Positions 9,033 to 60,300 of a DNA stretch of 64,000 nucleotides are shown here, one piece after another. The notes below the pieces were generated by a model, which searched no databases, was not told the origin of the DNA, and worked only from the letters and a program-made list of their open reading frames with translations. A program made the translations under genes and the position numbers. This stretch comes from a virus. The stretch covers positions 7,133 through 71,132 of the IMG/VR virus record IMGVR_UViG_3300047548_001818. One strand, written 5' to 3'. The stretch's first letter is position 1. Each line of letters begins with the position of its first letter.

Positions 9033-9037
9033 CGGTT

Positions 9038-16608: not shown

Positions 16609-16619
16609 AAAGGAATAAT

Positions 16620-17672: not shown

Positions 17673-17991
17673 GGAAGGTGTTGACTTTGTTTACGAAATT
17701 CCAAAGACAGAAGATACAACAGTTGGAATTAAAATTATCAGAGGAGAATATTCTGATACCATTTACCAATATGGTAAAGTGAAATTTGAAGAAGAGTCTG
17801 ATGGTGCCATTTATCTGAGATTCGTTTATAATGTCTTAGAATCTCCTTTAGATAAGGAGGAACTAGAAAAGAGTTCGCAGTTCAAAGACTATATCGGCGA
17901 TATTCTAGTTAATATTATCTCAGCAAATTTGGACAAAGGATTGATTGATGAGGCTGGAACAGACTATTCTGAAGAACCTGATTCACAATGA
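17650..17991 (+). CDS. hypothetical acidic protein between uvsX and the helicase gene
   Basis: ORF with internal start candidates at 17650 and 17659. Overlaps the gp41 start by about 47 nt. No motif recognised. Confidence 0.35.
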   Translation: MKKMKPFKEGVDFVYEIPKTEDTTVGIKIIRGEYSDTIYQYGKVKFEEESDGAIYLRFVYNVLESPLDKEELEKSSQFKDYIGDILVNIISANLDKGLIDEAGTDYSEEPDSQ

Positions 17992-19369: not shown

Positions 19370-20119
19370 ATGGCTGCACAACAAGGTTTTCAATATGAAG
19401 TGAACGCCGCCAATGTTTTGAAACCTTTAGGATTGGTACCAAAAACATTTGTGCCAGCCGGTGCGGGCCACGATCAACCCGATTTAATGCTGGAATATAA
19501 AAAAATTAAGGCAGGTTGTGAATTAAAAATTACAGCAGCATCAGCCGGTTCTTTGGTTTTAAAATATGATTCGAAGGACAAAAAGAACCCCTGGAAATTT
19601 GGTGACATAAAGAAAGATGATGATGAAAAAATATTCATAAAGGAATTGGCAGAAGAAGTTGGCCTTTTTGATATTATCAAAAAGGAATGGAAAGAAATAC
19701 CCTTTAAAAGAGATAAAGACCTTTTATGGGAATCGACAGCAGGAAAACTAACTAATCAACAAAGATACGAAAGAGATAGGGACACATTTCCTGATATACG
19801 CGGTGAAATAAAAGCAGAAAAAATTGAACAATATTACAACAAAAAAGACACATATTATGTAAATGTGGGTACACACGGCTTTTACATGATGGGAAAAAAG
19901 AATCCATTAAAATTGAAGAATGTACCTACATTCGCATCAGCAGCAAAAGCCACATATCGAGCGAGAGTTCAATATAAAGGAGGAGGTAATTATCAATTTA
20001 CTTTTGAGATGCAATTTTCTATTCCTGCTGCCAAAAAATCAAAATTTAATATTGCACCAGTTGACGGTAAAACCGTCAACATAAAAAAAGATCAATTAAA
20101 TTTAACCTGTTTCATTTAA
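19370..20119 (+). CDS. hypothetical protein (249 aa)
   Basis: ORF with an AGGGG RBS. Lys-rich. No recognisable motif. Not ThyA/gp42-like. Confidence 0.45.
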   Translation: MAAQQGFQYEVNAANVLKPLGLVPKTFVPAGAGHDQPDLMLEYKKIKAGCELKITAASAGSLVLKYDSKDKKNPWKFGDIKKDDDEKIFIKELAEEVGLFDIIKKEWKEIPFKRDKDLLWESTAGKLTNQQRYERDRDTFPDIRGEIKAEKIEQYYNKKDTYYVNVGTHGFYMMGKKNPLKLKNVPTFASAAKATYRARVQYKGGGNYQFTFEMQFSIPAAKKSKFNIAPVDGKTVNIKKDQLNLTCFI

Positions 20120-20120
20120 T

Positions 20121-20402
20121 ATGCCATTAGACCTAAACATAGAAAAAATTCTCAAAGAATTTGATGAAGACGACGACTTCGGTTTTTCTGCCGTTTCTGA
20201 AGTTGAGTACAATAAAGTTATTAATGAATCTGCCGAAACGGCAGAAGCATACAAAGCTAAATTGGCTGAAGTTGAAAAACTTATCATACCCTTCTTAACC
20301 AAACTTTTGAAGACAGCCGACAAAGAATATATATACTGGCCAAATAGAAAACCAGCAATCGAAAAACAAATTGAAAAGATATTGAAACTGACTCGGAGTT
20401 AA
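20121..20402 (+). CDS. small acidic hypothetical protein (93 aa)
   Basis: ORF tightly packed between neighbours. Confidence 0.4.
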   Translation: MPLDLNIEKILKEFDEDDDFGFSAVSEVEYNKVINESAETAEAYKAKLAEVEKLIIPFLTKLLKTADKEYIYWPNRKPAIEKQIEKILKLTRS

Positions 20403-20403
20403 T

Positions 20404-21135
20404 ATGAATCCTTTGGTGACGGTCATAACGCCAACTACGGCAAGTGACCAATTGCATGATGTATTGAAATCAATAGATAAACAAACATATCAAAACATTC
20501 AACACTTGGTTGTTGTAGATGGTTTTGACAAGTATGGCGTAAAAGCCACACAAATAATGGAAGGCGCAAAACGATCCACTGCTTTTGCACTTCCTCACAA
20601 TACCGGTTATGACCAATACAACGGTCATAGAATATATGGTGCAATGTCATATATTGCAGAAGGTGAGTTCCTCTGCTTTCTGGATCAAGACAACTGGTAC
20701 GAAGATACACACATAGAGTCTCTGGTTGAAGTAATTCGCCAAGGAAATCAATGGGCATATTCTCTAAGAAAAATTGTTTCACAAGAAGGAACATTCATTT
20801 GTAATGATGATTGTGAATCTCTTGGTAAATGGAAATCTATTCTAAATGACAATTTTGTGGACGTTAATTGTTTCATGATTCCTAAAATGGCAGCAATTGC
20901 ATTTTCACCATACTGGTATCGTAGAGCTAGACACCCACAAGAACAACCAGAAGTTGATAGAATTTTATCGGCATTTATGATGCAAAATTTTAAAAAATTT
21001 GACACAAATGGTCAATATAGTGTAAACTATCGTGTAGCAAGTAGAGCAGATTCTGTACAAGATGTATTCTTCATTAAAGGTAATGAAGTGATGAAACAAA
21101 ATATGAATGGAGAATTTCCGTGGCGAAAGACTTAA
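20404..21135 (+). CDS. family 2 (GT-A fold) glycosyltransferase
   Basis: N-terminal VTVITPTTASDQL...SIDKQTY..VVVDG and the DxD-type LDQDN motif are typical of GT2 enzymes. Confidence 0.6.
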   Translation: MNPLVTVITPTTASDQLHDVLKSIDKQTYQNIQHLVVVDGFDKYGVKATQIMEGAKRSTAFALPHNTGYDQYNGHRIYGAMSYIAEGEFLCFLDQDNWYEDTHIESLVEVIRQGNQWAYSLRKIVSQEGTFICNDDCESLGKWKSILNDNFVDVNCFMIPKMAAIAFSPYWYRRARHPQEQPEVDRILSAFMMQNFKKFDTNGQYSVNYRVASRADSVQDVFFIKGNEVMKQNMNGEFPWRKT

Positions 21136-21998
21136 TTATAGGTGCATATACAAATTATGAATTCAATTTATTGAAACCTTGGATTTATTCCATCAAACAA
21201 ACCGACTTCGATGGTGATATTGTTTTAATTGCCATTGATCCAGACGAAAACACCGTAAAACAAATAGAAGATGCTGGTGTAATAGTAGTTAAGGCTAGAA
21301 ACGAACAAAAAATGAGAATTCATATGTTGCGTTTCTTGTACATATACAATTATCTAAAACACACAGATTATCGTTTCGTTATCACGACAGATGTTCGTGA
21401 TGTTATCTTTCAGAACAATCCGACAAAATATCTTTACACAACATTTGGTAGCAAATCAAAAGGTATCATTGCACAATCTGAGGCAATTAAAATTAAAGAT
21501 GAAGCCTGGAATCGTGATAATATCATTAAAAATTTTGGAGAATATTTTTACAATGATGTAAAGGACAATGAAGTATATAATGTTGGTCTGCTTGCTGGAA
21601 CTGCCGAATATGTTAAAGATTTATGTTTTGCTTTGTTTCAAATGTCAAGCAATCGTCCAGATTGGGTCGCCGACCAGGCAGCATACAATATGTTATTGAG
21701 TTATAAACCCTGGTCCGATATTGCAATAAAACTAAAGCTTGAAGATGGTTGGGCTTTGAATGCACACGTAACAAACAAGCCAGATCAAATGCAAGAATTT
21801 GGTCCTTATTTGTTGGAAGAAAGACCGTATATGAAAGATGGTGTGGTTTTTAATGCACAAGGAAAACCATTTACGATTGTACACCAGTATGATAGGGTTC
21901 CAGAGTGGACTATTTATTATATGGAAAAATTTCAATTTTCTATCAAATCGGACACCAATACCGGCAGTTCACCTAAATACTTCATCTACAATACATAA
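21120..21998 (+). CDS. putative nucleotide-sugar-dependent glycosyltransferase (292 aa)
   Basis: Placement in the glycan cluster. No firm motif match. Assignment is tentative. Confidence 0.3.
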   Translation: MAKDLIIGAYTNYEFNLLKPWIYSIKQTDFDGDIVLIAIDPDENTVKQIEDAGVIVVKARNEQKMRIHMLRFLYIYNYLKHTDYRFVITTDVRDVIFQNNPTKYLYTTFGSKSKGIIAQSEAIKIKDEAWNRDNIIKNFGEYFYNDVKDNEVYNVGLLAGTAEYVKDLCFALFQMSSNRPDWVADQAAYNMLLSYKPWSDIAIKLKLEDGWALNAHVTNKPDQMQEFGPYLLEERPYMKDGVVFNAQGKPFTIVHQYDRVPEWTIYYMEKFQFSIKSDTNTGSSPKYFIYNT

Positions 21999-22016
21999 TT
22001 TTATAAATATGAGGCT

Positions 22017-22853
22017 TTGAATATGAGCAAAATTTCTATCGTAACCGCTTTCTATGACATTGGCCGAAGTGATTGGTCGATGGATGTACACAAAAATGGT
22101 GGTCCACTTCCACACTATTTACAAAGATCGACAGAAAAATATATCGAGCATTTCAAACGAATGTGCGAGATTGATACTGAAATCATTGTTTACACATCCT
22201 CTGATCTAGCATCAAAACTCGGTGAGATTTCACCGAATGTTAAAGTTGTCGAATATGACTACTTTAATATACATAAAGAACTCCGTGACAAGATTGAAGA
22301 AATACAAACATCACCTGAGTTCATAAAAAGAATAAATCCATATCAAGTAAGAAATCCCGAATACTGGTCAAAAGACTATGTTGGTGTAACATCACTAAAG
22401 GCTTTCTATGTGAGTGATGCTTTTGAGCGTGGGTTAATCACCAATGAATGGGCTGCCTGGGTTGACTTTGGTTATTGTCGTGATGCAGAACATATTCCAA
22501 AAACCAAAAAATGGGAATATGATTTCACACCAGGTAAAATGCACTTCTTTAACTATCGTGATCCGGACATTAATAAGAAACTTGAACAAATCCAGCTTGC
22601 GGTATTAAACAATATCGTCTATATCATCGGCGGTGTTTTTGTTGGTGAAAAAACACAATGGAAGATGCTTGAAGATAGTATGAGCAAATCAATGGAATTT
22701 TTAATGTACAACAAGCTCGTTGATGATGACCAAGGTCTTCTATTGAGTTCATATTTTATGAATCCAGAAATGTATGAATTGCATAAAATGCCATTAGTTG
22801 CTCCAATTGAAGATGTTAGATCCATAATTAAGAAGTTTAATAATCATGAATAA
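22017..22853 (+). CDS. HtrL/YibB-like putative polysaccharide-biosynthesis glycosyltransferase
   Basis: N-terminal SIVTAFYDIGRSDW is the hallmark of the HtrL/YibB family as I recall it. Confidence 0.4.
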   Translation: MNMSKISIVTAFYDIGRSDWSMDVHKNGGPLPHYLQRSTEKYIEHFKRMCEIDTEIIVYTSSDLASKLGEISPNVKVVEYDYFNIHKELRDKIEEIQTSPEFIKRINPYQVRNPEYWSKDYVGVTSLKAFYVSDAFERGLITNEWAAWVDFGYCRDAEHIPKTKKWEYDFTPGKMHFFNYRDPDINKKLEQIQLAVLNNIVYIIGGVFVGEKTQWKMLEDSMSKSMEFLMYNKLVDDDQGLLLSSYFMNPEMYELHKMPLVAPIEDVRSIIKKFNNHE

Positions 22854-24231
22854 ATTAGTAATTTTTGACCTTGATGGTGTATTAATTGATTCTAGAGAAA
22901 TACACTATGATGCATTAAATGATGCTCTGAGAAAAGTGGGTGAACAATATGTCATTTCTAGAGAAGAACATTTAAGCTTATACGATGGTTTAAATACGAC
23001 TAGAAAACTTAAGATGTTGACCGAAAAAAAAGGTTTACCTGTTTCTGAATATGATAAGATTTGGTCTGACAAGCAAGAAGCAACATTCACTATTGTTAGA
23101 GGTTTCAATAAAGAATATTGGTTACAAACCATGTTCAGAAAAATAAAAGCAAGAGGATATAAAATTGCTGTTGCTTCGAATTCAATTCGTGAGACAGTAA
23201 AATTGTCTCTTATAAGTATTGGGCTAATTGAAGAAGTTGATTATTTTGTTAGCAATGAGGATGTAAGTAGAGCAAAGCCATATCCCGAAATGTATTGGAA
23301 ATGCATGACAGCTTTGAATGCTTTACCCAAAAATACTATCATTGTCGAAGATAGTCACATCGGCCGACAAGGTGCTTTAGATTCTGGCGCACATTTATTA
23401 CCAGTTGAAAACGCACAAGAAGTTAACAGTGAAAATATGATGCAAAGGATTTATGACCTTATGAATACAATTGAAGGAACAAGTAAAAAATCTCTACCTT
23501 GGAGAGATAACAAACTAAACGTTTTGATTCCAATGGCTGGCGCAGGCTCACGTTTTTCTACTGCCGGTTATACTTTTCCAAAACCACTTATTGAAGTTCG
23601 CGGTAAACCAATGATTCAAGTTGTTGTCGAAAACTTGAATATTGAAGCTAACTACATTTTCTTAGTACAAAAAGAACACTATGAAAAATATAACTTGAAG
23701 TATCTTCTGAATCTAATTGCTCCAAATTGTAAGATTGTGCAAGTAGATGGTCTAACAGAAGGTGCAGCTTGTACGACTTTATTGGCAAAAGAATATATTG
23801 ATAATGATGCGCCTCTAGTCATGGCAAATTCGGATCAATACGTTGATTGGAATTCTAATGAATGCATGTACGCTTTCTCAGCAGATTCTATTGATGGTGG
23901 CATTCTAACATTTGAAGCAACGCATCCGAAATGGTCTTATGCAAAACTTGATGAGAATGGATTTGTTTCTGAAGTTGCAGAGAAGAAAGTTATTTCCAAT
24001 AATGCAACAGTTGGCATTTATTACTGGCGTCACGGTTCAGACTATGTTAAATATGCTGAACAGATGATTAAAAAAGATATTCGCGTTAACAATGAATTTT
24101 ATGTTTGTCCCGTTTTCAATGAAGCGATTGGTGACGGTAAAAAAATTCGTGTTAAAAATGTTGAAGCTATGTGGGGTATTGGAACCCCAGAAGATTTAAA
24201 TTATTTTTTGAGCAATCACAAGGAAGATTAA
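22846..24231 (+). CDS. bifunctional HAD-superfamily phosphatase/phosphomutase plus sugar-1-phosphate nucleotidyltransferase
   Basis: N-terminus LVIFDLDGVLIDS is HAD motif I. C-terminal half VLIPMAGAGSRFSTAGYTFPKPLIEVRGKPMI matches the G-x-G-x-R...K-P-x-I signature of RmlA/GlmU-type NTP transferases. Confidence 0.65.
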   Translation: MNKLVIFDLDGVLIDSREIHYDALNDALRKVGEQYVISREEHLSLYDGLNTTRKLKMLTEKKGLPVSEYDKIWSDKQEATFTIVRGFNKEYWLQTMFRKIKARGYKIAVASNSIRETVKLSLISIGLIEEVDYFVSNEDVSRAKPYPEMYWKCMTALNALPKNTIIVEDSHIGRQGALDSGAHLLPVENAQEVNSENMMQRIYDLMNTIEGTSKKSLPWRDNKLNVLIPMAGAGSRFSTAGYTFPKPLIEVRGKPMIQVVVENLNIEANYIFLVQKEHYEKYNLKYLLNLIAPNCKIVQVDGLTEGAACTTLLAKEYIDNDAPLVMANSDQYVDWNSNECMYAFSADSIDGGILTFEATHPKWSYAKLDENGFVSEVAEKKVISNNATVGIYYWRHGSDYVKYAEQMIKKDIRVNNEFYVCPVFNEAIGDGKKIRVKNVEAMWGIGTPEDLNYFLSNHKED

Positions 24232-24232
24232 A

Positions 24233-24847
24233 ATGAAATATTTTTTTGATGTTGGAGCACACTGGGGACAAGACTCTCTACATATTGCAAAAGATGACCC
24301 AGATACTACAGTTATTGCTTTTGAGCCAACGCCGGAGTTAGCTTCTAGATTGAGGTGGATTGCCAAAGAAGGGAAATTTGAAAGCCGCTATAAAGTATAT
24401 CAGCAAGCAATTTCAGATTTTGATGGTGAATCAGATTTTCATCTTGTTGTCGGTGATACCGGTTCGGCCTCTCTTAACGAATTCAATGACAATCTACATC
24501 AAACTTGGCCAGGTAGAACAGACTTTGTTGTTAGAGGCTCAATCAAAGTAAATGTATACAGACTCGAAACGTGGCTGCCTTTGTTTGCACCGGAAGTAAC
24601 AGAAATTGAACATTTACATATTGATGCTCAAGGCTCCGATTTAGCAGTTTTAAGAGGTCTAGGTTCCAAACTCTCGATGGTGAAATCTGGTGTCGTTGAA
24701 GTGCCACAAGCTGCTGCTTTACGACTGTATAAGGGTCAACACACGAAAGAAGAAACTCTCCAATTTTTGGAAGAGAATGGTTTCGAAGTTACAAATGTGA
24801 CTTCACAGGTTAATGAGGATAATATTTTCTTTCAGAGAAAAAAATGA
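24233..24847 (+). CDS. FkbM-family SAM-dependent methyltransferase
   Basis: FDVGAHWGQDSL...VIAFEP resembles the FkbM family glycine-rich SAM-binding start. Confidence 0.5.
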   Translation: MKYFFDVGAHWGQDSLHIAKDDPDTTVIAFEPTPELASRLRWIAKEGKFESRYKVYQQAISDFDGESDFHLVVGDTGSASLNEFNDNLHQTWPGRTDFVVRGSIKVNVYRLETWLPLFAPEVTEIEHLHIDAQGSDLAVLRGLGSKLSMVKSGVVEVPQAAALRLYKGQHTKEETLQFLEENGFEVTNVTSQVNEDNIFFQRKK

Positions 24848-25557
24848 AAGTTGCATTGTTATTAACAGGTCATATGCGGTGTTGGAATCAAGTATTTCCA
24901 AATACCAAAAACCATATCATGGACAAATATAATCCAGATGTTTTCATCGAGACATGGGATTCTGAAGCATACTGGGATCCACATTCTTCAAAGGGTATAA
25001 CCGAAGGTGGTCCCAATTTGAATGTTGATGCGATTCAACGTACTTACAAACCAGTATACATGAATGTGGAAAAATACGAAGAATTTGAAGAAAATTTTTC
25101 TCAACGAGCTAAGGAATTTACTAATTTCTATCATGTACCGAAAAACCAAATTTCCATGTGGTTTAAAGTAGGTCGTGGTATGCTCGCTGTTGAAGAGCAT
25201 ATGATGTTGACAGGCAAAACATATGATGTTATAATTCGTATGCGTCCAGATTTGTACTTCAATGAACCTTTACCAGATTTTGATCCGAACAAATTTTATA
25301 CCTTGGGATTTAGAAATCATATGGGTCAAGGAACCTCCGATATGATTCAAGTTGGAAACTTCTTTACCATGAGCTTATTCTGTAAAGTTCTTTATCATTT
25401 ACCACATCTTTATAAGGAAACCGGTCTTTTGTGTCCGCATGTTATTTCAGAACACTTCATTAAAAGATTGGGATTACCCTGGCAAGAATTTATGGTTAAC
25501 AAAACAATAATGCACACACCTCTAGGCGAATATAAACACAAGAGTCTGTACCAATGA
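24844..25557 (+). CDS. putative sugar-modifying enzyme, paralogue A
   Basis: N-terminus MKVALLLTGHMR...DVFIETW parallels that of 26005-26712 (MRLALCLSGQPR...DVFFHTW). Confidence 0.4.
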   Translation: MKVALLLTGHMRCWNQVFPNTKNHIMDKYNPDVFIETWDSEAYWDPHSSKGITEGGPNLNVDAIQRTYKPVYMNVEKYEEFEENFSQRAKEFTNFYHVPKNQISMWFKVGRGMLAVEEHMMLTGKTYDVIIRMRPDLYFNEPLPDFDPNKFYTLGFRNHMGQGTSDMIQVGNFFTMSLFCKVLYHLPHLYKETGLLCPHVISEHFIKRLGLPWQEFMVNKTIMHTPLGEYKHKSLYQ

Positions 25558-26048
25558 TACTAATTGCACACAGAGGTCTTTTCAGTGGGCCTGATATCGA
25601 AAAAGAGAATACACCAAAACAAATCGAACTTGCATTGGAAAAAAATTACGATTGTGAAGTTGATGTTTGGTACGTTAAAAATGAATGGTGGCTAGGTCAT
25701 GACAAACCACAATATAAAGTTGATTGGAACTTTATTGGAAAGGAAGGTTTGTGGCTGCACTGTAAGAATCTAGATGCTTTATATGAACTGACTTACAGCC
25801 CATTCAAGTACACTTATTTCTGGCATCAGGAAGACGATTTTACTTTAACTTCGAATCATTACATCTGGACTTATCCTGGAAAATCTCTAACCAGAAATTC
25901 AATTTCTGTGCAACCAGAAAGAACGGAAGAAATGTGGACATGGACCAAAAGTTGTTCACTAGGTATAGCTGGTGTTTGTACAAAATATGTTGAAAGATTT
26001 GTGAATGAGATTAGCACTTTGTCTATCGGGACAACCGAGAAGCTATAA
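25554..26048 (+). CDS. glycerophosphodiester phosphodiesterase (GDPD)-like protein
   Basis: LIAHRG...EKENT and the CEVDVW acidic motif match the GDPD H-R-x...E-N-T / E-x-D signature. Shorter (164 aa) than typical GDPDs. Confidence 0.5.
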   Translation: MILIAHRGLFSGPDIEKENTPKQIELALEKNYDCEVDVWYVKNEWWLGHDKPQYKVDWNFIGKEGLWLHCKNLDALYELTYSPFKYTYFWHQEDDFTLTSNHYIWTYPGKSLTRNSISVQPERTEEMWTWTKSCSLGIAGVCTKYVERFVNEISTLSIGTTEKL

Positions 26049-26712
26049 AAAAGCTTTTGAATTTATAAGTAGAAATTTACTTGAAAAATATACTGTTGAC
26101 GTTTTCTTTCATACGTGGGTGAACGTACCGGAGAATAGTTATATTTTTGACGAACTGCAACAACTTTATAGACCTGTTATTGCTTCTTATGACTATTCTT
26201 TACCGTCAAATGTAAATTCACACATGTTGGTTCCAAATGGCTCACATCCAGCCAATTTTTGCACATCAATGTTTTACTCTATTAATGTTGCAAATGAATA
26301 TAGGGTCAAGCATGAAGTTTTTGGTGCATTTCGTTATGATTTTGTTATACGAAGTAGATTTGATTTTGCGCTAAACAAAGTGATTGATTTTGGTTCTCTG
26401 GAAACAAATAAACTCTATGTTCCAAAAGATGTTGAAGGACCGGCACTTTTAAATGACCAGTTTGCCATAGCTGATTCTGATACGATGAATGTCTATGCGT
26501 CAACGTTCTTATATCTGCAAAAATTGTATAATTCTGGAGTTCCACTTTGTGGGCATGAAATGTTGCAGGAACAACTGACAAGAAATTCTACGCCAGTTGA
26601 ACGTATCGACCTTGACCATCCTTTCGTTGATGGTGATTTTAATAGAGGAAGACACTCTCTGATACGTGAAGATATGTCAAAATGGGTCGATATTAAAATT
26701 TGGGGCTACTAA
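26005..26712 (+). CDS. putative sugar-modifying enzyme, paralogue B
   Basis: Paralogue of 24844-25557. Start overlaps the GDPD gene by 44 nt. Confidence 0.4.
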   Translation: MRLALCLSGQPRSYKKAFEFISRNLLEKYTVDVFFHTWVNVPENSYIFDELQQLYRPVIASYDYSLPSNVNSHMLVPNGSHPANFCTSMFYSINVANEYRVKHEVFGAFRYDFVIRSRFDFALNKVIDFGSLETNKLYVPKDVEGPALLNDQFAIADSDTMNVYASTFLYLQKLYNSGVPLCGHEMLQEQLTRNSTPVERIDLDHPFVDGDFNRGRHSLIREDMSKWVDIKIWGY

Positions 26713-26748: not shown

Positions 26749-27942
26749 ATGAAACAATTTTTGCAGTATTTGCAGGAAGAACTGGACCCGGAAGAGGGTG
26801 CCAGTAGGCAAATAAAACACCTAACACATATCGAAGATCGTATTTTGCAAACCGGAGACAAAGGTGCAAAACACGCAATTTCGTCATTGGAAACTGCGGC
26901 TGAACACATCAGTCAAGGTAAAAAGTCATCGCAACTGACAACAAAATATGACGGTTCACCAGCAATCGTTTACGGTCATCACCCAGAAAACGGTAAGTTT
27001 TTTGTTGCTTCCAAGTCAGCTTTCAACAAAACACCAAAAATCAACTATACGCCTGCCGATATAGAAAAAAACCATGGCCATGCTCCTGGCTTGGTTGAGA
27101 AGTTGAAAGCAGCACTGAAACATTTACCGAAAGTTGCACCAGAAAAAGGTGTTTACCAGGGTGATATGATGTTCTCGGATGTAGACAAGAAACACTCAAA
27201 AGATGCCGTTTCTTTCAGACCAAATCCCTCTGGTATAACTTACACTGCACACGGTCAACATGCAACAAAAGCTAAAAAGGCCAAAATTGGTGTAGTAACT
27301 CATTTATCATATGAAGGCAAAAATTCTGCTAGTTTAAATGCATCGCACGAAGTTGACCATGAAAATTTCGGGCAACATTCTGATGTATTCTCGGTTGACC
27401 CAAGAATGGACACTTCTAAAGTACATTTCGGTCCAAAAGACAGAGCAGAATTCAAAAAACACATTGCCGCAGCTAGATCAGTTCACGATACGCACGGTGA
27501 CGACATGTATGCAGGAACAAAAGCACATCAAGGTATAGGTGGTCATTTAGAGACTTACATCAATCACACTGTTAGGAGTGATGAAGAACCTAATCATGAA
27601 AATTTTAAAAAGTGGTTGGAAAATAAGAAAAATAAAGAAATTGAAAAATTGAAGGTTGAAAAAAATAAAAAGTCCAAACAGCAAGAGTTATCAGCGGAAT
27701 TAGATAAGATTGAAAGAAATAAAAAGCACTATAATAATGTTTTCAAAATGCATGGTCATTTACAAAAAGCAAAAAATGTGCTGATTAATGTTCTAAATCA
27801 ACATCAAGAATTTCAACATGAACACGCTGGTGAACCAGCAAATCCTGAAGGATACGTTTTCCATCACGGAAAAGAATCGGATAAATTTGTAAACAGAAGC
27901 GAATTCTCAAAAAGAAATTTTGCCGGAATAAGAAACATATGA
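26749..27942 (+). CDS. RNA ligase 1 (RnlA)-like nucleotidyltransferase with a Lys-rich insertion
   Basis: Motif I LTTKYDGSPAIVYG...FFVASKSAF aligns with T4 Rnl1 LTKEDGSLVSTYLDG..ILFKSKGS. Downstream EGYVFHHGKESDKFVNRSEF aligns with T4 [20 protein letters not shown] (motifs IV/V). Confidence 0.5.
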   Translation: MKQFLQYLQEELDPEEGASRQIKHLTHIEDRILQTGDKGAKHAISSLETAAEHISQGKKSSQLTTKYDGSPAIVYGHHPENGKFFVASKSAFNKTPKINYTPADIEKNHGHAPGLVEKLKAALKHLPKVAPEKGVYQGDMMFSDVDKKHSKDAVSFRPNPSGITYTAHGQHATKAKKAKIGVVTHLSYEGKNSASLNASHEVDHENFGQHSDVFSVDPRMDTSKVHFGPKDRAEFKKHIAAARSVHDTHGDDMYAGTKAHQGIGGHLETYINHTVRSDEEPNHENFKKWLENKKNKEIEKLKVEKNKKSKQQELSAELDKIERNKKHYNNVFKMHGHLQKAKNVLINVLNQHQEFQHEHAGEPANPEGYVFHHGKESDKFVNRSEFSKRNFAGIRNI

Positions 27943-29840
27943 AAAAATTTCTAGAAAAAGTGGAAGACGATTTGCAAACCAAAAGCCCAGTCGTAATGGC
28001 TTTTGGTAGAATGAATCCGCCCACAGTTGGGCATGAGAAACTTGTAAACAGAGTTAAAGAAATAGCTAAAGACTATAATGCTCCACACCATGTTATAATT
28101 TCACATTCTGTTGATGCAAACAAAAATCCACTTGATGCTAAAGCAAAACTGAAACACGCCCAGAGATTTTTTCCTGGCACAAATTTATCAACTTCCAGTA
28201 AAGAACTTCCAACTTTCTTGCAACACGCTGCAAAGTTAAATGCAGCAGGACATGACCATTTAATTATGGTTGCAGGCTCGGATAGAATTCCAGAATATGA
28301 AAAGAAGTTGCATGATTATAATGGACCAAAAGATAAAAATCCAAAAGCACTTTTCAATTTCAAAAAAATTGAGTTGAAATCTGCGGGGCATCGTGATCCT
28401 GACTCTGAAGGTGTTGAAGGTATGTCTGCCTCAAAAATGAGGGAACATGCAAAAAATAATGATTTTCATAGCTTCAAGATGGGTGTACCTGAGCATGTGC
28501 CCGAGAAACACGCCAGAGAACTTTTCAGAGATGTTAGAAAAGGTATGGGTATACATGAAGATTCTAGTCATGGTTTGTTCAAAGCACTCTTCATTTGTGG
28601 TGGTCCCGGTTCCGGTAAAGATATCATCATACGTGAAGCAATTGCTGAAAGAAACGCGGTCGAACTGAATTCAACTCTTGCAATTAATATTCTCAACGAC
28701 AAACATAAGTTACATGAACAGTCTAAAGATTTCAGAAGAGAAGCTATTCGCAAAAGAATGCCGTTGATTGTAAATGGCACAACGAATGAACAATTCAATA
28801 TTATTGAAATTAAAAATGAGTTGGAAGAACTCGGTTACGAAACAATGATGATTTTCGTAAACACGACAAACGAAGCTTCGAAAAAAAGAAACAATGGACA
28901 TGAAAGAGTTATGTCCGAATCTGTTCGTCAAGAAAGATGGGATAAGACTCAACTTGTAGCTGAAAAAATGAATCAAATTTTTACAAAATATCTGGAATTT
29001 GATAACTCTTTGGACTTGAATGAAGCTACAATTTTCGAAATGTCGGAGAAAGAAGAAGATATAGCAATCATTTATGAAATGTCCAACTGGTTTTTCGACA
29101 CTCAAGTAAACAACGAAATTGCAGAAACTTGGTTAGAAAAAAATAGAAAAAAGGATATAAACCAAGTATTCGAATCCTTTATTAAAAATCCTTTGAAAGG
29201 TAGAAAAAATGTTTCAGAAATTAAAGCAAATCGCAAGACTATTTTTGCCGAAAGTGGATGCAAATGCAAAACATCCTTTGGATATTCAGAAGTATCAGGT
29301 AGAGGAAAACAAAAGCTCACAGACAACATCTGCCCAAGTTGCGAGCTTACTAGAAAAGCCGGTAGAGAAGACGATGTTAGAGACGGAGACACCAAATCAA
29401 ACATTAGTTACACATTCAGAACCTACCACGAAGGAACAACCCCAACCATCCAAGTCAACCCAGAGCCCAAAGAAACGCGCTTCCAGCAAGACAACGACAA
29501 GCAAAAAAACAGGAAACAAAAAGCCGCACCAAGCCAAAGCGGCAAAGTAATGAACACTGCTGGTGTTAGCCCAGAATATGATACACGCGCTCAAGGTTCT
29601 GTTTACCCAATGTCTGGTCTTGGAAATGTTACATATAGAGAACAGAAAGAGAATAAATATACCAGTACCGCAGAGGTAACACGCAAATCGTTTGTAAAAT
29701 TCAGAAAAGAATCTATTGATTCTCCAAGTGTCGAAATGGGAGTTACTGGCGGAGAATATGGTCCTTCAAACAAAGAACCGTTGGAAACTCCAGGCGATAA
29801 AGTATTGAATCAAAATTCAAATAAAAAGAAGAAAAAATGA
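27939..29840 (+). CDS. fused HxGH-type nucleotidyltransferase (NMNAT/cytidylyltransferase-like) plus P-loop kinase, with a long disordered C-terminus
   Basis: VVMAFGRMNPPTVGHEKL (T/HxGH motif) and GMSASKMRE (ISSTxxR-like motif) define a nucleotidyltransferase alpha/beta fold. LFICGGPGSGKDIII is a Walker A kinase motif. A NadR-like arrangement. Confidence 0.5.
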   Translation: MKKFLEKVEDDLQTKSPVVMAFGRMNPPTVGHEKLVNRVKEIAKDYNAPHHVIISHSVDANKNPLDAKAKLKHAQRFFPGTNLSTSSKELPTFLQHAAKLNAAGHDHLIMVAGSDRIPEYEKKLHDYNGPKDKNPKALFNFKKIELKSAGHRDPDSEGVEGMSASKMREHAKNNDFHSFKMGVPEHVPEKHARELFRDVRKGMGIHEDSSHGLFKALFICGGPGSGKDIIIREAIAERNAVELNSTLAINILNDKHKLHEQSKDFRREAIRKRMPLIVNGTTNEQFNIIEIKNELEELGYETMMIFVNTTNEASKKRNNGHERVMSESVRQERWDKTQLVAEKMNQIFTKYLEFDNSLDLNEATIFEMSEKEEDIAIIYEMSNWFFDTQVNNEIAETWLEKNRKKDINQVFESFIKNPLKGRKNVSEIKANRKTIFAESGCKCKTSFGYSEVSGRGKQKLTDNICPSCELTRKAGREDDVRDGDTKSNISYTFRTYHEGTTPTIQVNPEPKETRFQQDNDKQKNRKQKAAPSQSGKVMNTAGVSPEYDTRAQGSVYPMSGLGNVTYREQKENKYTSTAEVTRKSFVKFRKESIDSPSVEMGVTGGEYGPSNKEPLETPGDKVLNQNSNKKKKK

Positions 29841-30310
29841 AAACGTTTCTACAATATTCAAAAGAGCGAGACAAGGAAGAGCTTGAAAGACAAATGCGCC
29901 ATCATTTCGAAATGGCTCAAAGAAGTCTTGACACGGCTCAAGAATTGCAAAGTAAAGGTGACATGGATGGTTTTCACACATTTATGGCAAAGCACCACCA
30001 TTTTCAAACTCAAGGTGAGTATTTAAAAACTCACTTGAATGAGGCTTCTCCAGCGTGGCAAAGAAAAGCTGGTAAAAGCCCAACTGGCGGTCTGAATCGC
30101 AAAGGTATTGCTTCTTATCGTCGTGAAAATCCTGGTTCAAAACTGTCAATGGCAGTGACAACACCTCCTTCAAAGTTGAAGCCAGGAAGCAAAGCTGCAA
30201 AAAGAAGAAAATCCTTCTGTGCAAGAATGGGTGGTATGCCTGGTCCAATGAAGGATGAAAAGGGTCGCCCAACTAGAAAAGCTTTATCGTTACGTAAATG
30301 GAACTGCTAA
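29837..30310 (+). CDS. basic hypothetical protein (157 aa)
   Basis: Lys/Arg/His-rich ORF, translationally coupled to the upstream gene. Confidence 0.45.
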   Translation: MKTFLQYSKERDKEELERQMRHHFEMAQRSLDTAQELQSKGDMDGFHTFMAKHHHFQTQGEYLKTHLNEASPAWQRKAGKSPTGGLNRKGIASYRRENPGSKLSMAVTTPPSKLKPGSKAAKRRKSFCARMGGMPGPMKDEKGRPTRKALSLRKWNC

Positions 30311-30325: not shown

Positions 30326-31117
30326 ATGTTCAATAATATTTTCAAGAAAAATGATCCTGTTGCTGATATGATCGCTCAAATTGCTGAAGCCGATTACAAA
30401 GCAAAAATGGAAGAGCTTAAAGGTCAACAGCATAAGATTGACAAAAACAAGAACAACAAGATTGATGCACACGACTTTGCAATTCTTCGTGGCGAAAAGA
30501 AAGCCATGAAAAAAGAAGAAGTTGATAGTGTTGAAGAAGCTAACAATCCATTTGATGTTAAGAACTACAAGAGTCAATTGAAATCAAAACCAGGTGAAAA
30601 AGCTGGCTTTGACTCCAAGAAAACATCTACTGGTACTGTTTATTCAAGAAAGCCAGTCAAAGATGAGCCAATGAAAAAGGAAGAAATTGACCCGAACAAG
30701 ACAACAGTTGACACGTTAAATGGTCGTGAAAAAGATTCTAAGAATCCTTTTCTTTCGAAGAAAGTGTTCATGGATGTACCAGATAATGTAAAAGAAGAAA
30801 CTGAACAAATTGATGAGTTGAAAAAAACGACTGTCAAATCTTATCTAAAGAAAAAAGTTGATACTCTCCCAGGAAAAGATCCAAAGAAAGACCAGGAAAG
30901 CATGATGAGAGCGCATCATCGTGTTACTGGTGTTAAACCAACTTCTGAAGAAGTTGAAAAAATCGACGAGCGTGAACTTACTAAAGGTGAAACCGCAGAA
31001 AAAGAACGTATCGTTAAAGGAATGAAAAAGAGTTTTGCTGGTTTCAAACAGCGTTACGGTGATAAAGCAAAATCAGTTATGTATGCTACCGCTACAAAGG
31101 CAGCTAAAAAGGATTGA
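30326..31117 (+). CDS. highly charged Lys/Glu-rich protein with an EVEQIDEL motif
   Basis: Low-complexity K/E/D composition. Shares the EETEQIDELKK motif with the next gene. Confidence 0.5.
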   Translation: MFNNIFKKNDPVADMIAQIAEADYKAKMEELKGQQHKIDKNKNNKIDAHDFAILRGEKKAMKKEEVDSVEEANNPFDVKNYKSQLKSKPGEKAGFDSKKTSTGTVYSRKPVKDEPMKKEEIDPNKTTVDTLNGREKDSKNPFLSKKVFMDVPDNVKEETEQIDELKKTTVKSYLKKKVDTLPGKDPKKDQESMMRAHHRVTGVKPTSEEVEKIDERELTKGETAEKERIVKGMKKSFAGFKQRYGDKAKSVMYATATKAAKKD

Positions 31118-32976
31118 TAATGAGTAAAGCAGGCAATCTCATTAAAAACATGGTGAAAGCGAAAAAAGAATCTGTCATGGGTAAATTGGCCAACGGTGAC
31201 GATCCGATGGAACCATGGTCGAAAAGATTCGATGCTCCAATCAAAGAAGAAGAATTGAACGAAGATACCTGGTTATATCGTTACATACGTTCTCTTGGTT
31301 GGGACCCGGAACACATGACATTTGCAGAACGTTCAAAATACGCTCGTTCGAATGCATTTAAACACTGGAAACAGTCACACATGAATCGTAGACCGGGTGA
31401 AACTGCCACAATGGAGAAACCAGTTCAGGAAGAAATTCTCGACGAAGCTGGAACTGGCTTGCTCATGTCATATATTAAATCCAAGGGTCTTGATCCAAGA
31501 ACAATGGACGGAAATCAAAAAGCCGCATATTCTAAATCCAGTGAATTTAGAATGTTTAAAATGCGTCATATGAAAGAAGTTTCGGGGATGGGTGAACGTG
31601 GTGATGATTGGAATGAAGAAAAGAAACCTGTGAAAGAGGCTGTCGATAAAGCAGACACTGTTACAGTAGACATTCCATTGATGATTCGTCTTCTTGAATA
31701 TGCTCGTGAAGATGCCAAAACCGATATGGATCTACACAAAGTTGTGGAAAATTTAATCAATATGCGTTCAGAAGGAACACTTTCAATGGATCATTACGAT
31801 TCTATCGTAAATGTTAAGTCCATGAAAGAAGAGGTTGAACAAATTGATGAACTTGATAAAGCGACACTGACCAGCTATGCAACGAAAGCGAGAGCAGATG
31901 CTGAAAAGCTAACTAAGCAAGGTGATGCTGCATCAAAAAGAAGTTCCACGAAATCTTTACAGACTGCTTATGACAAATATAAAAAAGCAGCAAAACGCAC
32001 GATGGGTGCCGGTAGTGCAGAGTCGAAAGCTCGTCTAAAAGAAGACGAGCAATTAGACGAACTAAAAAAGATTCCTGATAATATGGATGCTGACGACCAT
32101 ATTACCCGTGAAGATTTGCGTCAGTGGTTTAGTAAAACACACCCAGAGGGTGATTGGAAAAGAATCAATTCAAAAGGTGAAGTTGCAGGTCCTTGTGCCA
32201 GAGAGCCTGGTGAACCAAAACCTAAGTGCATGTCAAAAGAGAAACGCGCACAATTGAGCAAGAGTGAACGTGCGGCCGCAGTTGCAGCAAAACGTAAACA
32301 TGATCCTGTTGCTGATAGACCAGGTAAAGGCGGTAAGCCTATTAACGTTTCAAATTACGGTAAAGGTAAACTGAGTGAAGAAGGTGTCGATGAAGCATGT
32401 TGGGATACACACAAACAAGAGGGAATGAAAAAGAAGGGCGATAGAATGGTCCCAAATTGTGTTCCTAAAAATGAATCTGTCGAACAAATTGATGAAAAAA
32501 ACAAACCAACAAATCCAGGTTTGTGGTCTAGAGCAAAAGCAATGGCTCGTTCCAAGTTTGATGTTTACCCATCAGCTTATGCAAATGGTTGGGCAGCAAA
32601 ATGGTACAAATCCAAAGGCGGCGGATGGAAGTCGGTGAAAGAAGATATTGTTCAAGAAGGTATTTACGGTATCGAGGATTCACCTTTGTCTGCGACAAAT
32701 TCTGTTAAAGCTATGGAATCTTCTAACAGAAAAAAAGAAATGTCGAAATCTGCTAGAATGATTAAATCAATCTACAAAAAGAAAAATGTCAAAGAGACAA
32801 TGTACGATTGGGAAAAGACTGAAAAGGGTGGTAAAGTTGTTGATGAGCCAACCGCAAAAGTTATTATGAAAGGTGGTACAACTATGACTGGAAAACCACG
32901 AGACACTATCGAAATAGAGCCTGTCTTAAAAACAAAACTTAACAGTCCGGCTGGTATGAAATCTAGCTTGCAATAA
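31114..32976 (+). CDS. 620-aa Lys/Glu-rich protein with internal EVEQIDEL / EDEQLDEL / ESVEQIDE repeats
   Basis: Three to four copies of the acidic octad. A conserved-looking block YPSAYANGWAAKWYKSKGGGWKS near the C-terminus. Confidence 0.5.
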   Translation: MIMSKAGNLIKNMVKAKKESVMGKLANGDDPMEPWSKRFDAPIKEEELNEDTWLYRYIRSLGWDPEHMTFAERSKYARSNAFKHWKQSHMNRRPGETATMEKPVQEEILDEAGTGLLMSYIKSKGLDPRTMDGNQKAAYSKSSEFRMFKMRHMKEVSGMGERGDDWNEEKKPVKEAVDKADTVTVDIPLMIRLLEYAREDAKTDMDLHKVVENLINMRSEGTLSMDHYDSIVNVKSMKEEVEQIDELDKATLTSYATKARADAEKLTKQGDAASKRSSTKSLQTAYDKYKKAAKRTMGAGSAESKARLKEDEQLDELKKIPDNMDADDHITREDLRQWFSKTHPEGDWKRINSKGEVAGPCAREPGEPKPKCMSKEKRAQLSKSERAAAVAAKRKHDPVADRPGKGGKPINVSNYGKGKLSEEGVDEACWDTHKQEGMKKKGDRMVPNCVPKNESVEQIDEKNKPTNPGLWSRAKAMARSKFDVYPSAYANGWAAKWYKSKGGGWKSVKEDIVQEGIYGIEDSPLSATNSVKAMESSNRKKEMSKSARMIKSIYKKKNVKETMYDWEKTEKGGKVVDEPTAKVIMKGGTTMTGKPRDTIEIEPVLKTKLNSPAGMKSSLQ

Positions 32977-33592: not shown

Positions 33593-33979
33593 ATGTTTGA
33601 TGATTTGACTGAAGACAATTTTATTATGTATGCTATGAAGGCATACTATTCGCCACACTGTATAATGAGTGAATTTGAGAGCGACCTAAAAAGAACAAAA
33701 TATCTAAAAAGACTTTTCAGGCGCTACAAAATAACGAAAGCATTAAAAGAAAGATTAATCTTAAACCACATAATACTTCTTTATAATGTTTTTGGAGTCG
33801 AGGCGGCAACAAGAATATTGTTCTTCAGAATTGATGAAAAAGATTATGATGTTCTTAAAACTTTTTTGATTTATCTAAATTATATGCCAGATAAAATAAA
33901 AGGTATAGGTGGAAAAGATATTTTATCTTCTGATATACTAATTGATATGCATGTTGCAGATATACTAAGAAAAATATGA
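33593..33979 (+). CDS. hypothetical protein (128 aa)
   Basis: ORF in the operon preceding the lysis genes. Confidence 0.4.
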   Translation: MFDDLTEDNFIMYAMKAYYSPHCIMSEFESDLKRTKYLKRLFRRYKITKALKERLILNHIILLYNVFGVEAATRILFFRIDEKDYDVLKTFLIYLNYMPDKIKGIGGKDILSSDILIDMHVADILRKI

Positions 33980-34161
33980 AATCATTCAAACAATTTATTT
34001 TAGAAGATGGTATGGTGGGTTCTTCCGGACCAACAAATGTTGTAAGCACTGGTGCGATTGCTGGAACGGGGGAAAAAGGTGGTGAACCAGGTGTGCGTTT
34101 AAAACGTAAGCGTGCTGTTATAGTTCAACCAATGCAAAAACGAAAACCACCAAAGATGTAA
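33976..34161 (+). CDS. small hypothetical protein (61 aa)
   Basis: Overlapping-stop ORF. Basic C-terminus. Confidence 0.35.
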   Translation: MKSFKQFILEDGMVGSSGPTNVVSTGAIAGTGEKGGEPGVRLKRKRAVIVQPMQKRKPPKM

Positions 34162-42360: not shown

Positions 42361-42542
42361 CAAATAGAATAATTACAGGAGAATGTGATAATTGCGAATC
42401 ATCTTTTGAAGTTGCTTATTCAGAAGAAATGGTTTCAGAAGATATGCCAAATTTCTGCCCATTCTGCGGTGAGGTCATCGAAAATATTGAAGAAGAATAT
42501 ATAGATGATGATGACTTCGATGAGAATGAGGAATGGAAATAA
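42357..42542 (+). CDS. small acidic zinc-ribbon protein
   Basis: CDNCESSF...CPFCGEV with an acidic tail. Confidence 0.4.
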   Translation: MTNRIITGECDNCESSFEVAYSEEMVSEDMPNFCPFCGEVIENIEEEYIDDDDFDENEEWK

Positions 42543-44653: not shown

Positions 44654-45502
44654 ATGATTCTCATTGATTTGAACCAAGTTTTGCTGTCCGGTTTGATGGC
44701 ACAAATTGGTGGTCAAAAAAATATCAAGCTTGAAGAAGGCTTGGTGCGTCACATGGTTTTGAACATTCTCCGTTCACACGTAAAACAATTTCGCAACGAA
44801 TATGGTGAAGTTGTTCTCTGCTGCGACAATAAAAAATATTGGCGTAAAGAGTTTTTCCCGTTCTATAAAGCTGGTCGTAAGAAAACCCGTGAAAAATCGG
44901 AACTTGATTGGCATTTGATTTTCGATATCCTCGGTAATCTTAAAAATGAACTTAGGGAAAATTTCCCGTACAAAGTTATTGATGTTGAAGGTGCTGAGGC
45001 TGATGATATCATTGGCACACTGACTCCTCTTTTTTCGAATAGCGAAAAGATCCTGATTCTGTCCAGTGATGGCGACTTTCTGCAATTGCAACAATATAAG
45101 AACGTCAAACAATATAATCCAACACAGAAAAAATTTATTAAATCGGTTGATCCTCTTTTGGAACTAAAAGAGAAGATTATCACTGGCGATAAAGGTGACG
45201 GTATTCCGAACGTACTTTCTCCTTCAGATTGTTTCGTGCGTGAAATGCGCCAGAAACCTATCACCAAGAATAAAATGCAGCAAATGCTTTCAGAAAGCTT
45301 TTCTGACTGGCAAGATGAAGAAGCCAAAGTTGGTTTTTCTAGGAATCAAGTTTTGATTGATTTGCGTAATATTCCTGAAGAAATTAAAAAATCGATTATT
45401 GATACATATAATAATACAAAGCCGTGCCCACGTTCCAAGCTTATTAATTATTTTATGGATAAAAAGCTTAAGAACCTTATGGACGTTATAGAGGAATTTT
45501 AA
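44654..45502 (+). CDS. rnh: RNase H / 5'-3' flap exonuclease (T4 rnh homologue)
   Basis: Colinear with T4 RNase H. KILILSSDGDFLQLQQYKNVKQYNP vs T4 KILIISSDGDFTQLHKYPNVKQWSP. EGAEADDIIG vs DKYEADDHIA. ITGDKGDGIPNV vs ILKGDKKDNVASV. Confidence 0.85.
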   Translation: MILIDLNQVLLSGLMAQIGGQKNIKLEEGLVRHMVLNILRSHVKQFRNEYGEVVLCCDNKKYWRKEFFPFYKAGRKKTREKSELDWHLIFDILGNLKNELRENFPYKVIDVEGAEADDIIGTLTPLFSNSEKILILSSDGDFLQLQQYKNVKQYNPTQKKFIKSVDPLLELKEKIITGDKGDGIPNVLSPSDCFVREMRQKPITKNKMQQMLSESFSDWQDEEAKVGFSRNQVLIDLRNIPEEIKKSIIDTYNNTKPCPRSKLINYFMDKKLKNLMDVIEEF

Positions 45503-45927
45503 TGAGAAAAAACATTTATGAAATTTTTGACGAATTTGCTGCGGTAAGTTCCAAAAAAGAAAAGATTGAAGTATTAGCTAAAAACTGGAATCCAACACTT
45601 AGATTGGTGTTGCAGCTTGCTTATGATCCTAATATTAATTGGATCGTTAAGGAGAAACCGGCCAACTATAAAAAGCCTGATACTGCACCGGGTATTTCTT
45701 TTAGCACATTGAATACGGAATTACGCAGATTGTATCTTTTTCAATCTGGAAATCCAAGTGCCGAAAAACTCACACCAAAAAGGCGCGAGGAACTTTTGTT
45801 GATTTTGCTAGAATCTCTTGAGCCAAGAGAAGCAGACGTAATAATTGGTATTTTCAAAAAAGATTTGGGTGTCAAAGGATTGACATATAAGTTTATCCGA
45901 GACAACATTCCTGGAGTTCTACAATAA
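45502..45927 (+). CDS. hypothetical protein at the dsbA-syntenic position downstream of rnh
   Basis: ORF only. T4 has dsbA next to rnh but no sequence match was established here. Confidence 0.35.
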   Translation: MRKNIYEIFDEFAAVSSKKEKIEVLAKNWNPTLRLVLQLAYDPNINWIVKEKPANYKKPDTAPGISFSTLNTELRRLYLFQSGNPSAEKLTPKRREELLLILLESLEPREADVIIGIFKKDLGVKGLTYKFIRDNIPGVLQ

Positions 45928-59802: not shown

Positions 59803-60300
59803 GTGTACGATACTGATTGGAATAATATGACAGATAAACCTAAATGCTATCAACTCATTGGTATACCTGGCTCAGGTAAATCTACATGGGCAGAAAAAAT
59901 GGGGCAAGTTATGCATTATACCTCAATAGTTTCAACCGATATGTGGGTTGAAATGGAGGCTGAGCGTGTTGGTAAAACATACACTGAAGTTTTCCAAGAT
60001 TATATGCCCAAGGCTGTAGAATTGATGGCTAATCAGGTTGGCCTGTTGCGTGATATTAAGAGTAATATTATCTGGGATCAAACCTCCACGACCATTGCAA
60101 GTCGCAAAAAGAAATTCAATATGTTGCCCAATTATGAGCATATTGCTGTAGTGTTTAAAACACCATCTGAAGATGAATTGAAGAAACGATTGGCTTCACG
60201 ACCAGGTAAAGAAATACCATGGGAAGTGGTGCAGAGTATGATTAACCGGTTTGAAGAACCAACTATTGAAGAGGGCTTCAAAGAGATTTGGAGAGTTTAA
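59803..60300 (+). CDS. P-loop kinase resembling the kinase domain of T4 polynucleotide kinase (no phosphatase domain)
   Basis: LIGIPGSGKSTWAEKM vs T4 Pnk ILTIGCPGSGKSTWAREF. 165 aa. Confidence 0.5.
   Translation: MYDTDWNNMTDKPKCYQLIGIPGSGKSTWAEKMGQVMHYTSIVSTDMWVEMEAERVGKTYTEVFQDYMPKAVELMANQVGLLRDIKSNIIWDQTSTTIASRKKKFNMLPNYEHIAVVFKTPSEDELKKRLASRPGKEIPWEVVQSMINRFEEPTIEEGFKEIWRV

Follow-up and report, generated by a model that had tools for sequence, protein, structure and literature searches.

The DNA analysed here is a stretch of 64,000 nucleotides (nt) from IMG/VR virus record IMGVR_UViG_3300047548_001818 (positions 7,133 to 71,132; hereafter the window), whose gene content is that of a marine T4-like myophage. 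Its subject is a pair of overlapping open reading frames (ORFs) at 26749-29840, designated ORF A and ORF B. In an original prediction, made from the sequence without database searches, the first had been read as an RNA ligase 1-like gene and the second as a fusion of an HxGH nucleotidyltransferase with a P-loop kinase. Both ORFs, and every motif quoted for them, were present as described in the ORF list and translations. The features of the pair are given below, with residues numbered in amino acids (aa) of each product.

26749..27942, + strand: ORF A, 397 aa, DUF6267
26749..26778, + strand: decapeptide MKQFLQYLQE at the N-terminus of ORF A, resembling the T4 capsid-targeting sequence
26818..26838, + strand: motif H24-x-x-H27-x-E29-D30, 90-100% conserved in 132 diverse members, preceding a long N-terminal helix
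26944..26961, + strand: motif I, K66-Y-D-G-S-P (aa 66-71), with the predicted nucleotidyl-accepting lysine
27433..27795, + strand: Lys-rich helical insertion (aa ~229-349), placed after the front half of the nucleotidyltransferase core and before motif IV
27847..27897, + strand: motif IV, E367-G-Y-V-F (aa 367-371), and motif V, K379-F-V-N-R383, on a beta hairpin
27939..28568, + strand: ORF B aa 1-210, HxGH (here TxGH) nucleotidyltransferase of the NMNAT/PPAT class
28002-28034, + strand: FGRMNPPTVGH (aa 22-32), conserved
28422-28442, + strand: MSASKMR (aa 162-168), conserved
28569..29186, + strand: ORF B aa 211-416, divergent P-loop kinase-fold domain
28599-28622, + strand: Walker A motif GGPGSGKD (aa 221-228), invariant
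29187..29840, + strand: ORF B aa 417-633, Cys4 zinc-ribbon-like cluster and basic tail ending in poly-Lys

Domains and relationships of ORF A and ORF B

ORF A is preceded by the Shine-Dalgarno sequence GAGGA and encodes a member of Pfam family DUF6267 (E 1e-93), also classified as phrog_455. The family comprised 5,563 clusters at 90% identity and 2,402 representatives at 50%, and was found in ~470 phage records; a literature search on DUF6267 and 'cytitidyltransferase' found no paper. Among 132 members that were 29-53% identical to the window protein, the residues of KYDGSP, EGYVF and DKFVNR (aa 378-383) were 96-100% conserved, and Q137-G-D139, V370, K89, G181 and H185 were further conserved positions. 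Within motif I, conservation in this set and in a 74-member set was 98-100% for K66, 98% for D68 and 99% for G69. K66, K89, G181, E367, G368 and R383 were invariant in the 74-sequence alignment, and K379 was conserved at 90-100%.

An AlphaFold (AF2) model of ORF A, built from 32 homologues, was confident (predicted local distance difference test, pLDDT, 87; predicted template modelling score, pTM, 0.84). The adenylyltransferase-domain fold was found in this predicted structure, and motif I has the KxDG form of the covalent nucleotidyltransferase superfamily (K66-Y-D68-G69). The top Foldseek ranks were taken by DNA ligases, NgrRnl, a tRNA ligase and REL1, with weak statistics (best E 0.012); the leading fold matches were all polynucleotide ligases. 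In the model, the hairpin of motifs IV and V has strands at aa 369-373 and 376-380, and the Lys-rich insertion forms helices at aa 229-256, 266-277, 283-299, 304-323 and 325-349 (DSSP). A disordered acidic linker (aa 8-19, pLDDT <50) follows the N-terminal decapeptide. The protein ends ~15 aa beyond motif V, with no predicted structure after aa 391. An oligonucleotide/oligosaccharide-binding (OB) fold domain with motif VI, placed after the nucleotidyltransferase domain, was absent from both the sequence and the model, and so was any appended C-terminal domain. Sequence comparison with PDB entries, using phmmer and two profile searches, gave no match to ORF A, and Pfam and NCBIfam returned nothing except DUF6267. 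When the DUF6267 profile was compared with T4 Rnl2 by hhalign, motif IV alone was aligned (EGYVL), at a probability of 0.2%, which is not significant.

Because the conserved positions in motifs I, IV and V are those that a ligase needs, and because of the predicted fold, ORF A was placed in the ligase superfamily, as had been proposed. Judged from the model and the conserved motifs, it is a strongly diverged member of the lysine-nucleotidyltransferase (polynucleotide ligase) superfamily. Its modelled architecture is closest to that of the minimal RNA ligases, and not to T4 Rnl1 in particular. These ligases (T4 Rnl2 and trypanosome REL1; the Rnl5 enzymes Naegleria NgrRnl and Deinococcus DraRnl) are the closest known systems, although ORF A has no detectable sequence similarity to them. 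It also differs from them in that its helical module lies inside the nucleotidyltransferase domain, whereas theirs is appended, and in that it adds the HxxHxED motif, an Asp at the putative motif III and an obligate HxGH partner. The suggested kinship with T4 Rnl1 did not hold up: neither sequence membership of that family nor its C-terminal tRNA-binding domain was found in ORF A, and Rnl1 was not the nearest ligase. In a further difference from the T4 Rnl1 and Pnk system, the scan of window ORFs yielded neither a 3'-phosphatase nor a cyclic phosphodiesterase. The Lys-rich insert noticed earlier is present, but it is inserted before motif IV and does not replace a C-terminal domain. The fold does not discriminate between RNA and DNA as the substrate of ORF A; RNA is somewhat more likely.

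AF2 folded aa 1-416 of ORF B. The first 210 aa matched PHROG 'cytidyltransferase' families (E 2e-61) and carry (H/T)xGH and ISxxxxR-type motifs on a Rossmann-like fold. Scores against curated families were below the cut-offs (Pfam CTP_transf_like, 13.5 bits versus 21; NCBIfam cyt_tran_rel, 22.5 versus 27.7), and phosphopantetheine adenylyltransferase (PPAT) and nicotinamide mononucleotide adenylyltransferase (NMNAT) scored equally well. The domain is not an orthologue of characterised NMNATs, and the phage hits listed were mostly annotated just 'cytidyltransferase'.

The kinase domain of ORF B was weak by sequence (AAA_33 and Zeta_toxin, E ~1e-3; AAA_33, 19.3 bits versus a cut-off of 27), and its fold was that of a generic P-loop kinase, with leading matches other than NadR. 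T4 Pnk gave no match to ORF B, and neither membership of the Pnk/Pnkp polynucleotide 5'-kinases nor their GxxxxGK(S/T) motif was found in aa 211-416. The Cys4 cluster (C441, C443, C465 and C468; 29259-29342) occupies columns that are conserved in 38 homologues. The tail is likewise conserved in sequence in 38 homologues, yet disordered in the model (pLDDT <50). The zinc ribbon and the basic tail suggest nucleic-acid binding.

The earlier fold calls for ORF B, an NMNAT-type HxGH nucleotidyltransferase followed by a P-loop kinase, were right. The order of the two domains is NadR-like, without the helix-turn-helix domain. Compared with NMNATs of the NadR/NadM type (Francisella NadM-Nudix, KVP40 NatV), ORF B represents a separate phage family with no Nudix domain, in which the kinase is optional and the nucleotidyltransferase is always tied to DUF6267.

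Linkage, fusion and N-terminal leaders of the pair

ORF A and ORF B overlap by ATGA, and ORF B overlaps a third gene, ORF C, in the same way. The genes that follow the pair are as follows.

29837..30310, + strand: ORF C, 157 aa, DUF6321 (E 5e-23), ATGA-coupled to ORF B
30326..32976, + strand: two highly charged low-complexity ORFs of 263 and 620 aa, with homologues 3' of the nucleotidyltransferase-kinase gene in IMG/VR loci

To these can be added that the DUF6321 gene was co-located with the pair in many related IMG/VR loci. The 263- and 620-aa ORFs contain repeated EEVEQIDEL-like segments and a YPSAYANGWAAKWYK motif, and their PHROG matches were of unknown function only.

Profiles made from the window proteins were used to scan 80 related IMG/VR loci (47-82% identity), 54 of which were informative, having at least 1.5 kb of sequence 3' of DUF6267. 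The HxGH nucleotidyltransferase lay 3' of DUF6267 in all 54. The gap between the two genes was <100 nt in half of them (27/54), and the other loci had an insert of ~0.2-1.6 kb. In locus L005 (5600-6750) and ~20 other IMG/VR loci, an insert of ~1 kb carried two His/Lys-rich ORFs of 215 and 201 aa; this insert is possibly a mobile gene or a split one.

Fusions of DUF6267 with the nucleotidyltransferase made up 39 of 150 representatives at 50% identity, two of them in reverse order, and were confirmed by Pfam; S-PM2d138 is such a fusion. A search of 185,579 species genomes with the closer of two profiles gave a single hit, which was again a fusion, on a T4-like phage contig binned as a Bacteroidetes metagenome-assembled genome. 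Three representatives (P0378, P0268 and P0293) are single DUF6267 and nucleotidyltransferase proteins with added domains: a RimK-type ATP-grasp with Zn_protease, a Pol-beta-type nucleotidyltransferase (PF01909), or LysM, in one representative each. A link to RlaP was considered for the second of these domains and was not supported; since PF01909 is not the RlaP family, this fusion was set aside as evidence of RNA repair. The kinase and tail were present in 28 of the 54 informative loci. In HTVC008M, the kinase is a gene of its own, 5' of the nucleotidyltransferase gene.

The pair belongs to the gp43-UvsX-gp41…gp61 block of cyanophage- and pelagiphage-type myophages, and the order gp41, pair, primase/Nrd genes is common to S-PM2, S-SZBM1, HTVC008M and the window. 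ORF A and ORF B are one functional unit, obligately linked and often fused, and the pair is a hallmark, or core feature, of marine T4-like (Kyanoviridae-type) myophages of the cyanophage and pelagiphage types. The linkage and fusion, the core status, the optional kinase and the capsid-targeting-like leaders described next were absent from the original prediction.

In T4, a capsid-targeting sequence sends otherwise unrelated internal proteins into the prohead (PMC3012670). The internal proteins IPII and IPIII start MKTYQEFIAE. Besides the decapeptide of ORF A, similar leaders were found in ORF B (MKKFLEKVED) and ORF C (MKTFLQYSKE), and in one further gene of the window.

33976..34161, + strand: small basic ORF, 61 aa, with leader MKSFKQFILE and the ending RLKRKR…KRKPPKM

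A leader pattern derived from ORFs A, B and C gave four matches in the six-frame translation of the window (the three ORFs and the 61-aa ORF) versus 0.17 expected; since the pattern was built on the first three leaders, MKSFKQFILE is the sole independent match. By its leader and composition, the 61-aa product is a candidate internal (ejected) head protein of the T4 internal-protein kind. The leaders have the form of an N-terminal targeting peptide of ~10 residues ending in Glu, with Asp at the end of that of ORF B. The N-termini of the family fit the pattern M..[FYWLIM]...[LIVMF].[ED] in 47 of 113 cases. In the 80 loci, the leader pattern began 29% of the ORFs for DUF6267, 26% of those for nucleotidyltransferase-kinase proteins and 44% of those for DUF6321, as compared to 0.5% of unclassified ORFs.

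Leaders of the same kind begin the cytidylyltransferases of S-SZBM1 (MRFRQFIIEA) and S-CREM2 (MKNFSSFLTE). These orthologues of ORF B were detected by mass spectrometry in CsCl-purified virions (PMC9146016, PMC10665884). The DUF6267 protein of Stenotrophomonas phage DLP6 starts MMKFTQFLAE. The T4-like leaders point to proteins that enter the prohead and leave the particle along with the DNA; taken with the virion detection of orthologues, they suggest that the pair is delivered in the capsid. The likeness to the T4 internal proteins and Alt lies in N-terminal decapeptides resembling MKTYQEFIAE and in the presence of ORF B orthologues in virions; the difference is that packaging and cleavage in the window phage are predicted from the leader sequence. 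We know of no ligase-like, NMNAT-like or kinase cargo described for phage heads.

Phage type, gene order and neighbouring genes

A megablast search of the window against a phage collection gave no match at the DNA level. At the protein level, the nearest cultured relatives were Pelagibacter phage HTVC008M, Methylophilales phage Melnitz and cyanomyophages. Genes of replication, RNA metabolism and the regions around the pair are listed here.

14077-16608: gp43 polymerase
16563-17672: UvsX
17945-19348: gp41 helicase
19370-26712: island between gp41 and DUF6267, with a GT2 glycosyltransferase, HtrL_YibB, a HAD-phosphatase and NTP-transferase fusion, an FkbM methyltransferase and two DUF7796 genes
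44654-45502: T4-type RNase H
45502..45927, + strand: stand-alone homologue of the N-terminal DNA-binding domain of ATP-dependent DNA ligases, 141 aa, directly after RNase H
59803..60300, + strand: kinase-only homologue of the T4 Pnk kinase domain, 165 aa
5400-5870: RNaseH_like ORF, inside the tRNA array
7611-9032: 'RNA-binding protein' by its PHROGs name (phrog_850), Pfam DUF2828 and DUF7788, inside the tRNA array
9150-9524: RF-1-domain (ArfB-like) ORF, inside the tRNA array

The downstream part of the window also codes for ThyX, NrdA and NrdB, together with the RNase H. The 45502-45927 ORF matched Pfam DUF6433 and, weakly, DNA_ligase_A_N, and aligned with aa 2-56 of T4 gp30 (E 1e-3). Its tblastn matches lay at the N-termini of ligases annotated in Aeromonas, Ochrobactrum and Vibrio phages. 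A stand-alone ligase-domain gene adjacent to rnh was also found in cyanomyophages and Melnitz; Iyer et al. drew attention to the stand-alone ligase DNA-binding domain and proposed recruitment of a host ligase as its role (PMC7824862).

A separate Pnk-like kinase had been placed at 59803-60300, and the ORF there bears this out, with matches to AAA_33 (E 1e-18) and to aa 6-142 of T4 Pnk, within its kinase domain (E 3e-4); PSTK and bacterial Pnkp were the top NCBIfam matches, under the cut-off. The tRNA array at 176-9600 contains 28 genes found by ARAGORN and three Rfam matches (4656-4726, 4735-4806 and 4998-5060). The first pelagimyophages listed in Table 1 of a published study of that group have 0-2 tRNAs, far fewer than the window (PMC7029224). 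With the Pnk-like kinase, the tRNA set, the 'RNA-binding protein' and the RF-1-domain gene in the same phage, a role in RNA maintenance is plausible.

The island at 19370-26712 was not found at the equivalent position in S-PM2, S-SZBM1 or HTVC008M. A hypervariable island has been reported in pelagimyophages (PMC7029224), and the window island is probably the counterpart of this host-recognition island. Elsewhere, the GC content was 0.51 at 52000-54000 versus ~0.37 in the rest of the window; the two ORFs scanned in this segment (52205-52570 and 53198-54313) had zero Pfam matches, and the segment may be foreign DNA. Accessory genes at 50912-51334, 46833-47216, 58619-59437 and 42533-42964 include a YAcAr SLOG-family protein, an ORF with a MazE/AbrB-like domain, an SPFH/Band 7 protein and a SegE-type GIY-YIG homing endonuclease.

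The heptamer CTAAATA occurred five times in the window versus 11.2 expected, always on the + strand (1394, 21973, 26709, 49442 and 55609). Four of the five copies lay 38-74 nt 5' of an ORF start, one of them 40 nt before ORF A, a promoter-like placement. Its identity as a late promoter was not confirmed; the published cyanophage late motif, NATAAATA, differs.

Possible functions of the pair

We tentatively favour the reading that the pair is a coupled, probably capsid-delivered module that heals and seals nucleic-acid ends. ORF A would charge K66 with AMP and then join or modify 5'-phosphate and 3'-OH ends of nucleic acids, and the kinase would provide the 5'-phosphates. The HxGH enzyme would form an A(5')pp(5')N bond, the same kind of bond that ligases use, either by converting NMN and ATP to an NAD+-type adenylyl donor or by directly adenylylating a 5'-phosphate. 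As prohead cargo entering the cell along with the DNA, the proteins could act in the first minutes of infection, in repair or counter-defence. Cyanomyophages have no recognisable gp30 DNA ligase, rnlA or pseT (PMC2984593, PMC1079782), which fits a healing-and-sealing role.

Several observations weigh against this reading. In ORF A, the candidate motif III (Q137-G-D139) has Asp where Glu is usual, and in ORF B, the Walker A motif has Asp where Ser or Thr is usual. Cyanophage orthologues of ORF B have no kinase domain, and the role given to the HxGH enzyme comes from chemical reasoning. A phosphoesterase that would heal 3' ends was found neither beside the pair nor among the window ORFs scanned. 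As regards delivery, the leader is absent from cyanophage-type DUF6267 proteins (S-SZBM1_141, S-PM2d138 and HTVC008M gp127), and the virion proteins reported for S-SZBM1 did not include S-SZBM1_141 (PMC9146016). The virion detections of the cytidylyltransferases consist of 2-3 peptides, and contamination was allowed for by the authors (PMC9146016, PMC10665884).

A closely connected proposal, which we regard as unlikely, makes the pair a two-component ligase. ORF A would take its AMP from an NAD+-type dinucleotide, regenerated on the spot out of NMN and ATP by its fused or adjacent NMNAT-like partner, and would be the ligase long sought in cyanophage- and pelagiphage-type myophages. It would seal DNA with the stand-alone ligase domain, or serve in injected repair of the incoming genome or of host-cleaved RNAs.

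The original prediction had offered two functions, a variant tRNA-repair toolkit or NAD+ salvage as in KVP40-type phages. The fold assignments behind them stood, and each function is incomplete and only part of the picture. In the second, ORF B would be NadR-like, acting as NMN adenylyltransferase and ribosylnicotinamide kinase to sustain NAD+ levels during infection, and ORF A would be an NAD+-consuming ligase or unrelated. The domain order of ORF B is NadR-like, but a scan of window ORFs revealed neither NadV/Nampt nor Nudix nor any further NAD gene, and characterised phage NMNATs are not orthologues of this nucleotidyltransferase family. In addition, PPAT scores equalled those of NMNAT, the kinase is missing from cyanophage orthologues, and where present its leading fold matches were not NadR. 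NAD+ salvage alone would also leave the obligate fusion with a ligase-like enzyme unexplained. We consider salvage improbable, and KVP40-type salvage as a sufficient reading was rejected, since the window ORFs scanned included no partner genes and the nucleotidyltransferase family is distinct.

The leaders and the virion detection resemble those of T4 Alt and internal proteins, and they would suit a pair that nucleotidylates a protein or small molecule, either as an Alt-like injected effector or as a maker of an unusual dinucleotide. The extra conserved HxxHxED motif of DUF6267 and the single representatives fused to a RimK-type ATP-grasp, a Pol-beta nucleotidyltransferase or LysM point the same way. 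On the other side, the leading fold matches of ORF A were all polynucleotide ligases, and the zinc ribbon and basic tail of ORF B hint at nucleic-acid binding. To our knowledge, no member of the ligase superfamily acts on an acceptor other than nucleic acid, which also counts against such an activity, and we assign it a low probability.

It is quite unlikely that DUF6267 is the missing replicative DNA ligase of these phages, sealing Okazaki fragments, possibly with the stand-alone ligase DNA-binding domain. In favour, its gene is part of the gp43-UvsX-gp41…gp61 block in phages that have no gp30, ORF A is of the same nucleotidyltransferase superfamily as gp30, and DNA ligases were among its fold hits. 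A gp30-type DNA-binding domain is encoded directly after rnh, as a separate gene and not as part of the ORF A polypeptide. A tblastn search with T4 gp30 hit 2,645 phage records, and Synechococcus phages fell outside the ten largest host groups, in keeping with the lack of a recognisable gp30 in cyanomyophages. However, ORF A differs from gp30 in having no OB domain, and capsid-targeting-like leaders and virion association are unexpected for a replisome enzyme. The stand-alone domain also occurs in Caulobacter phage Cr30, which is not among the organisms listed for DUF6267. In phage DLP6, a full-length DUF6267 gene (E 3e-104) and the nucleotidyltransferase occur together with a full-length ligase of the gp30 type, aligned along its entire length at 28% identity (E 2e-47). 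The distributions of gp30 and DUF6267 are thus not complementary, with both in DLP6 and DUF6267 without gp30 in cyanomyophages. As DLP6 carries both genes, simple replacement of gp30 was rejected as the principal explanation; the pair has a function that gp30 does not make redundant.

That the proteins are structural or scaffolding head proteins with vestigial enzyme folds is highly improbable: orthologues are associated with virions and low-complexity proteins are neighbours, but in all three domains the residues of catalytic type hardly vary, even between very divergent sequences.

The T4-like myophages of which the pair is a core feature infect Prochlorococcus, Synechococcus, SAR11 and OM43. 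At present, the name given to ORF A is that of a domain of unknown function, and ORF B is usually taken for a cell-wall or metabolic "cytidylyltransferase". The recognition of ORF A as a ligase-type enzyme makes it a concrete candidate for the DNA/RNA ligase functions that have been noted as missing in reviews from 2005-2010 on. If active, it would stand for a new family of ligases, unusual in architecture and with a nucleotidyltransferase as obligate partner; it would be relevant to phage-host conflict, in which the pair may act as injected repair enzymes, and as a source of enzymes for molecular biology.

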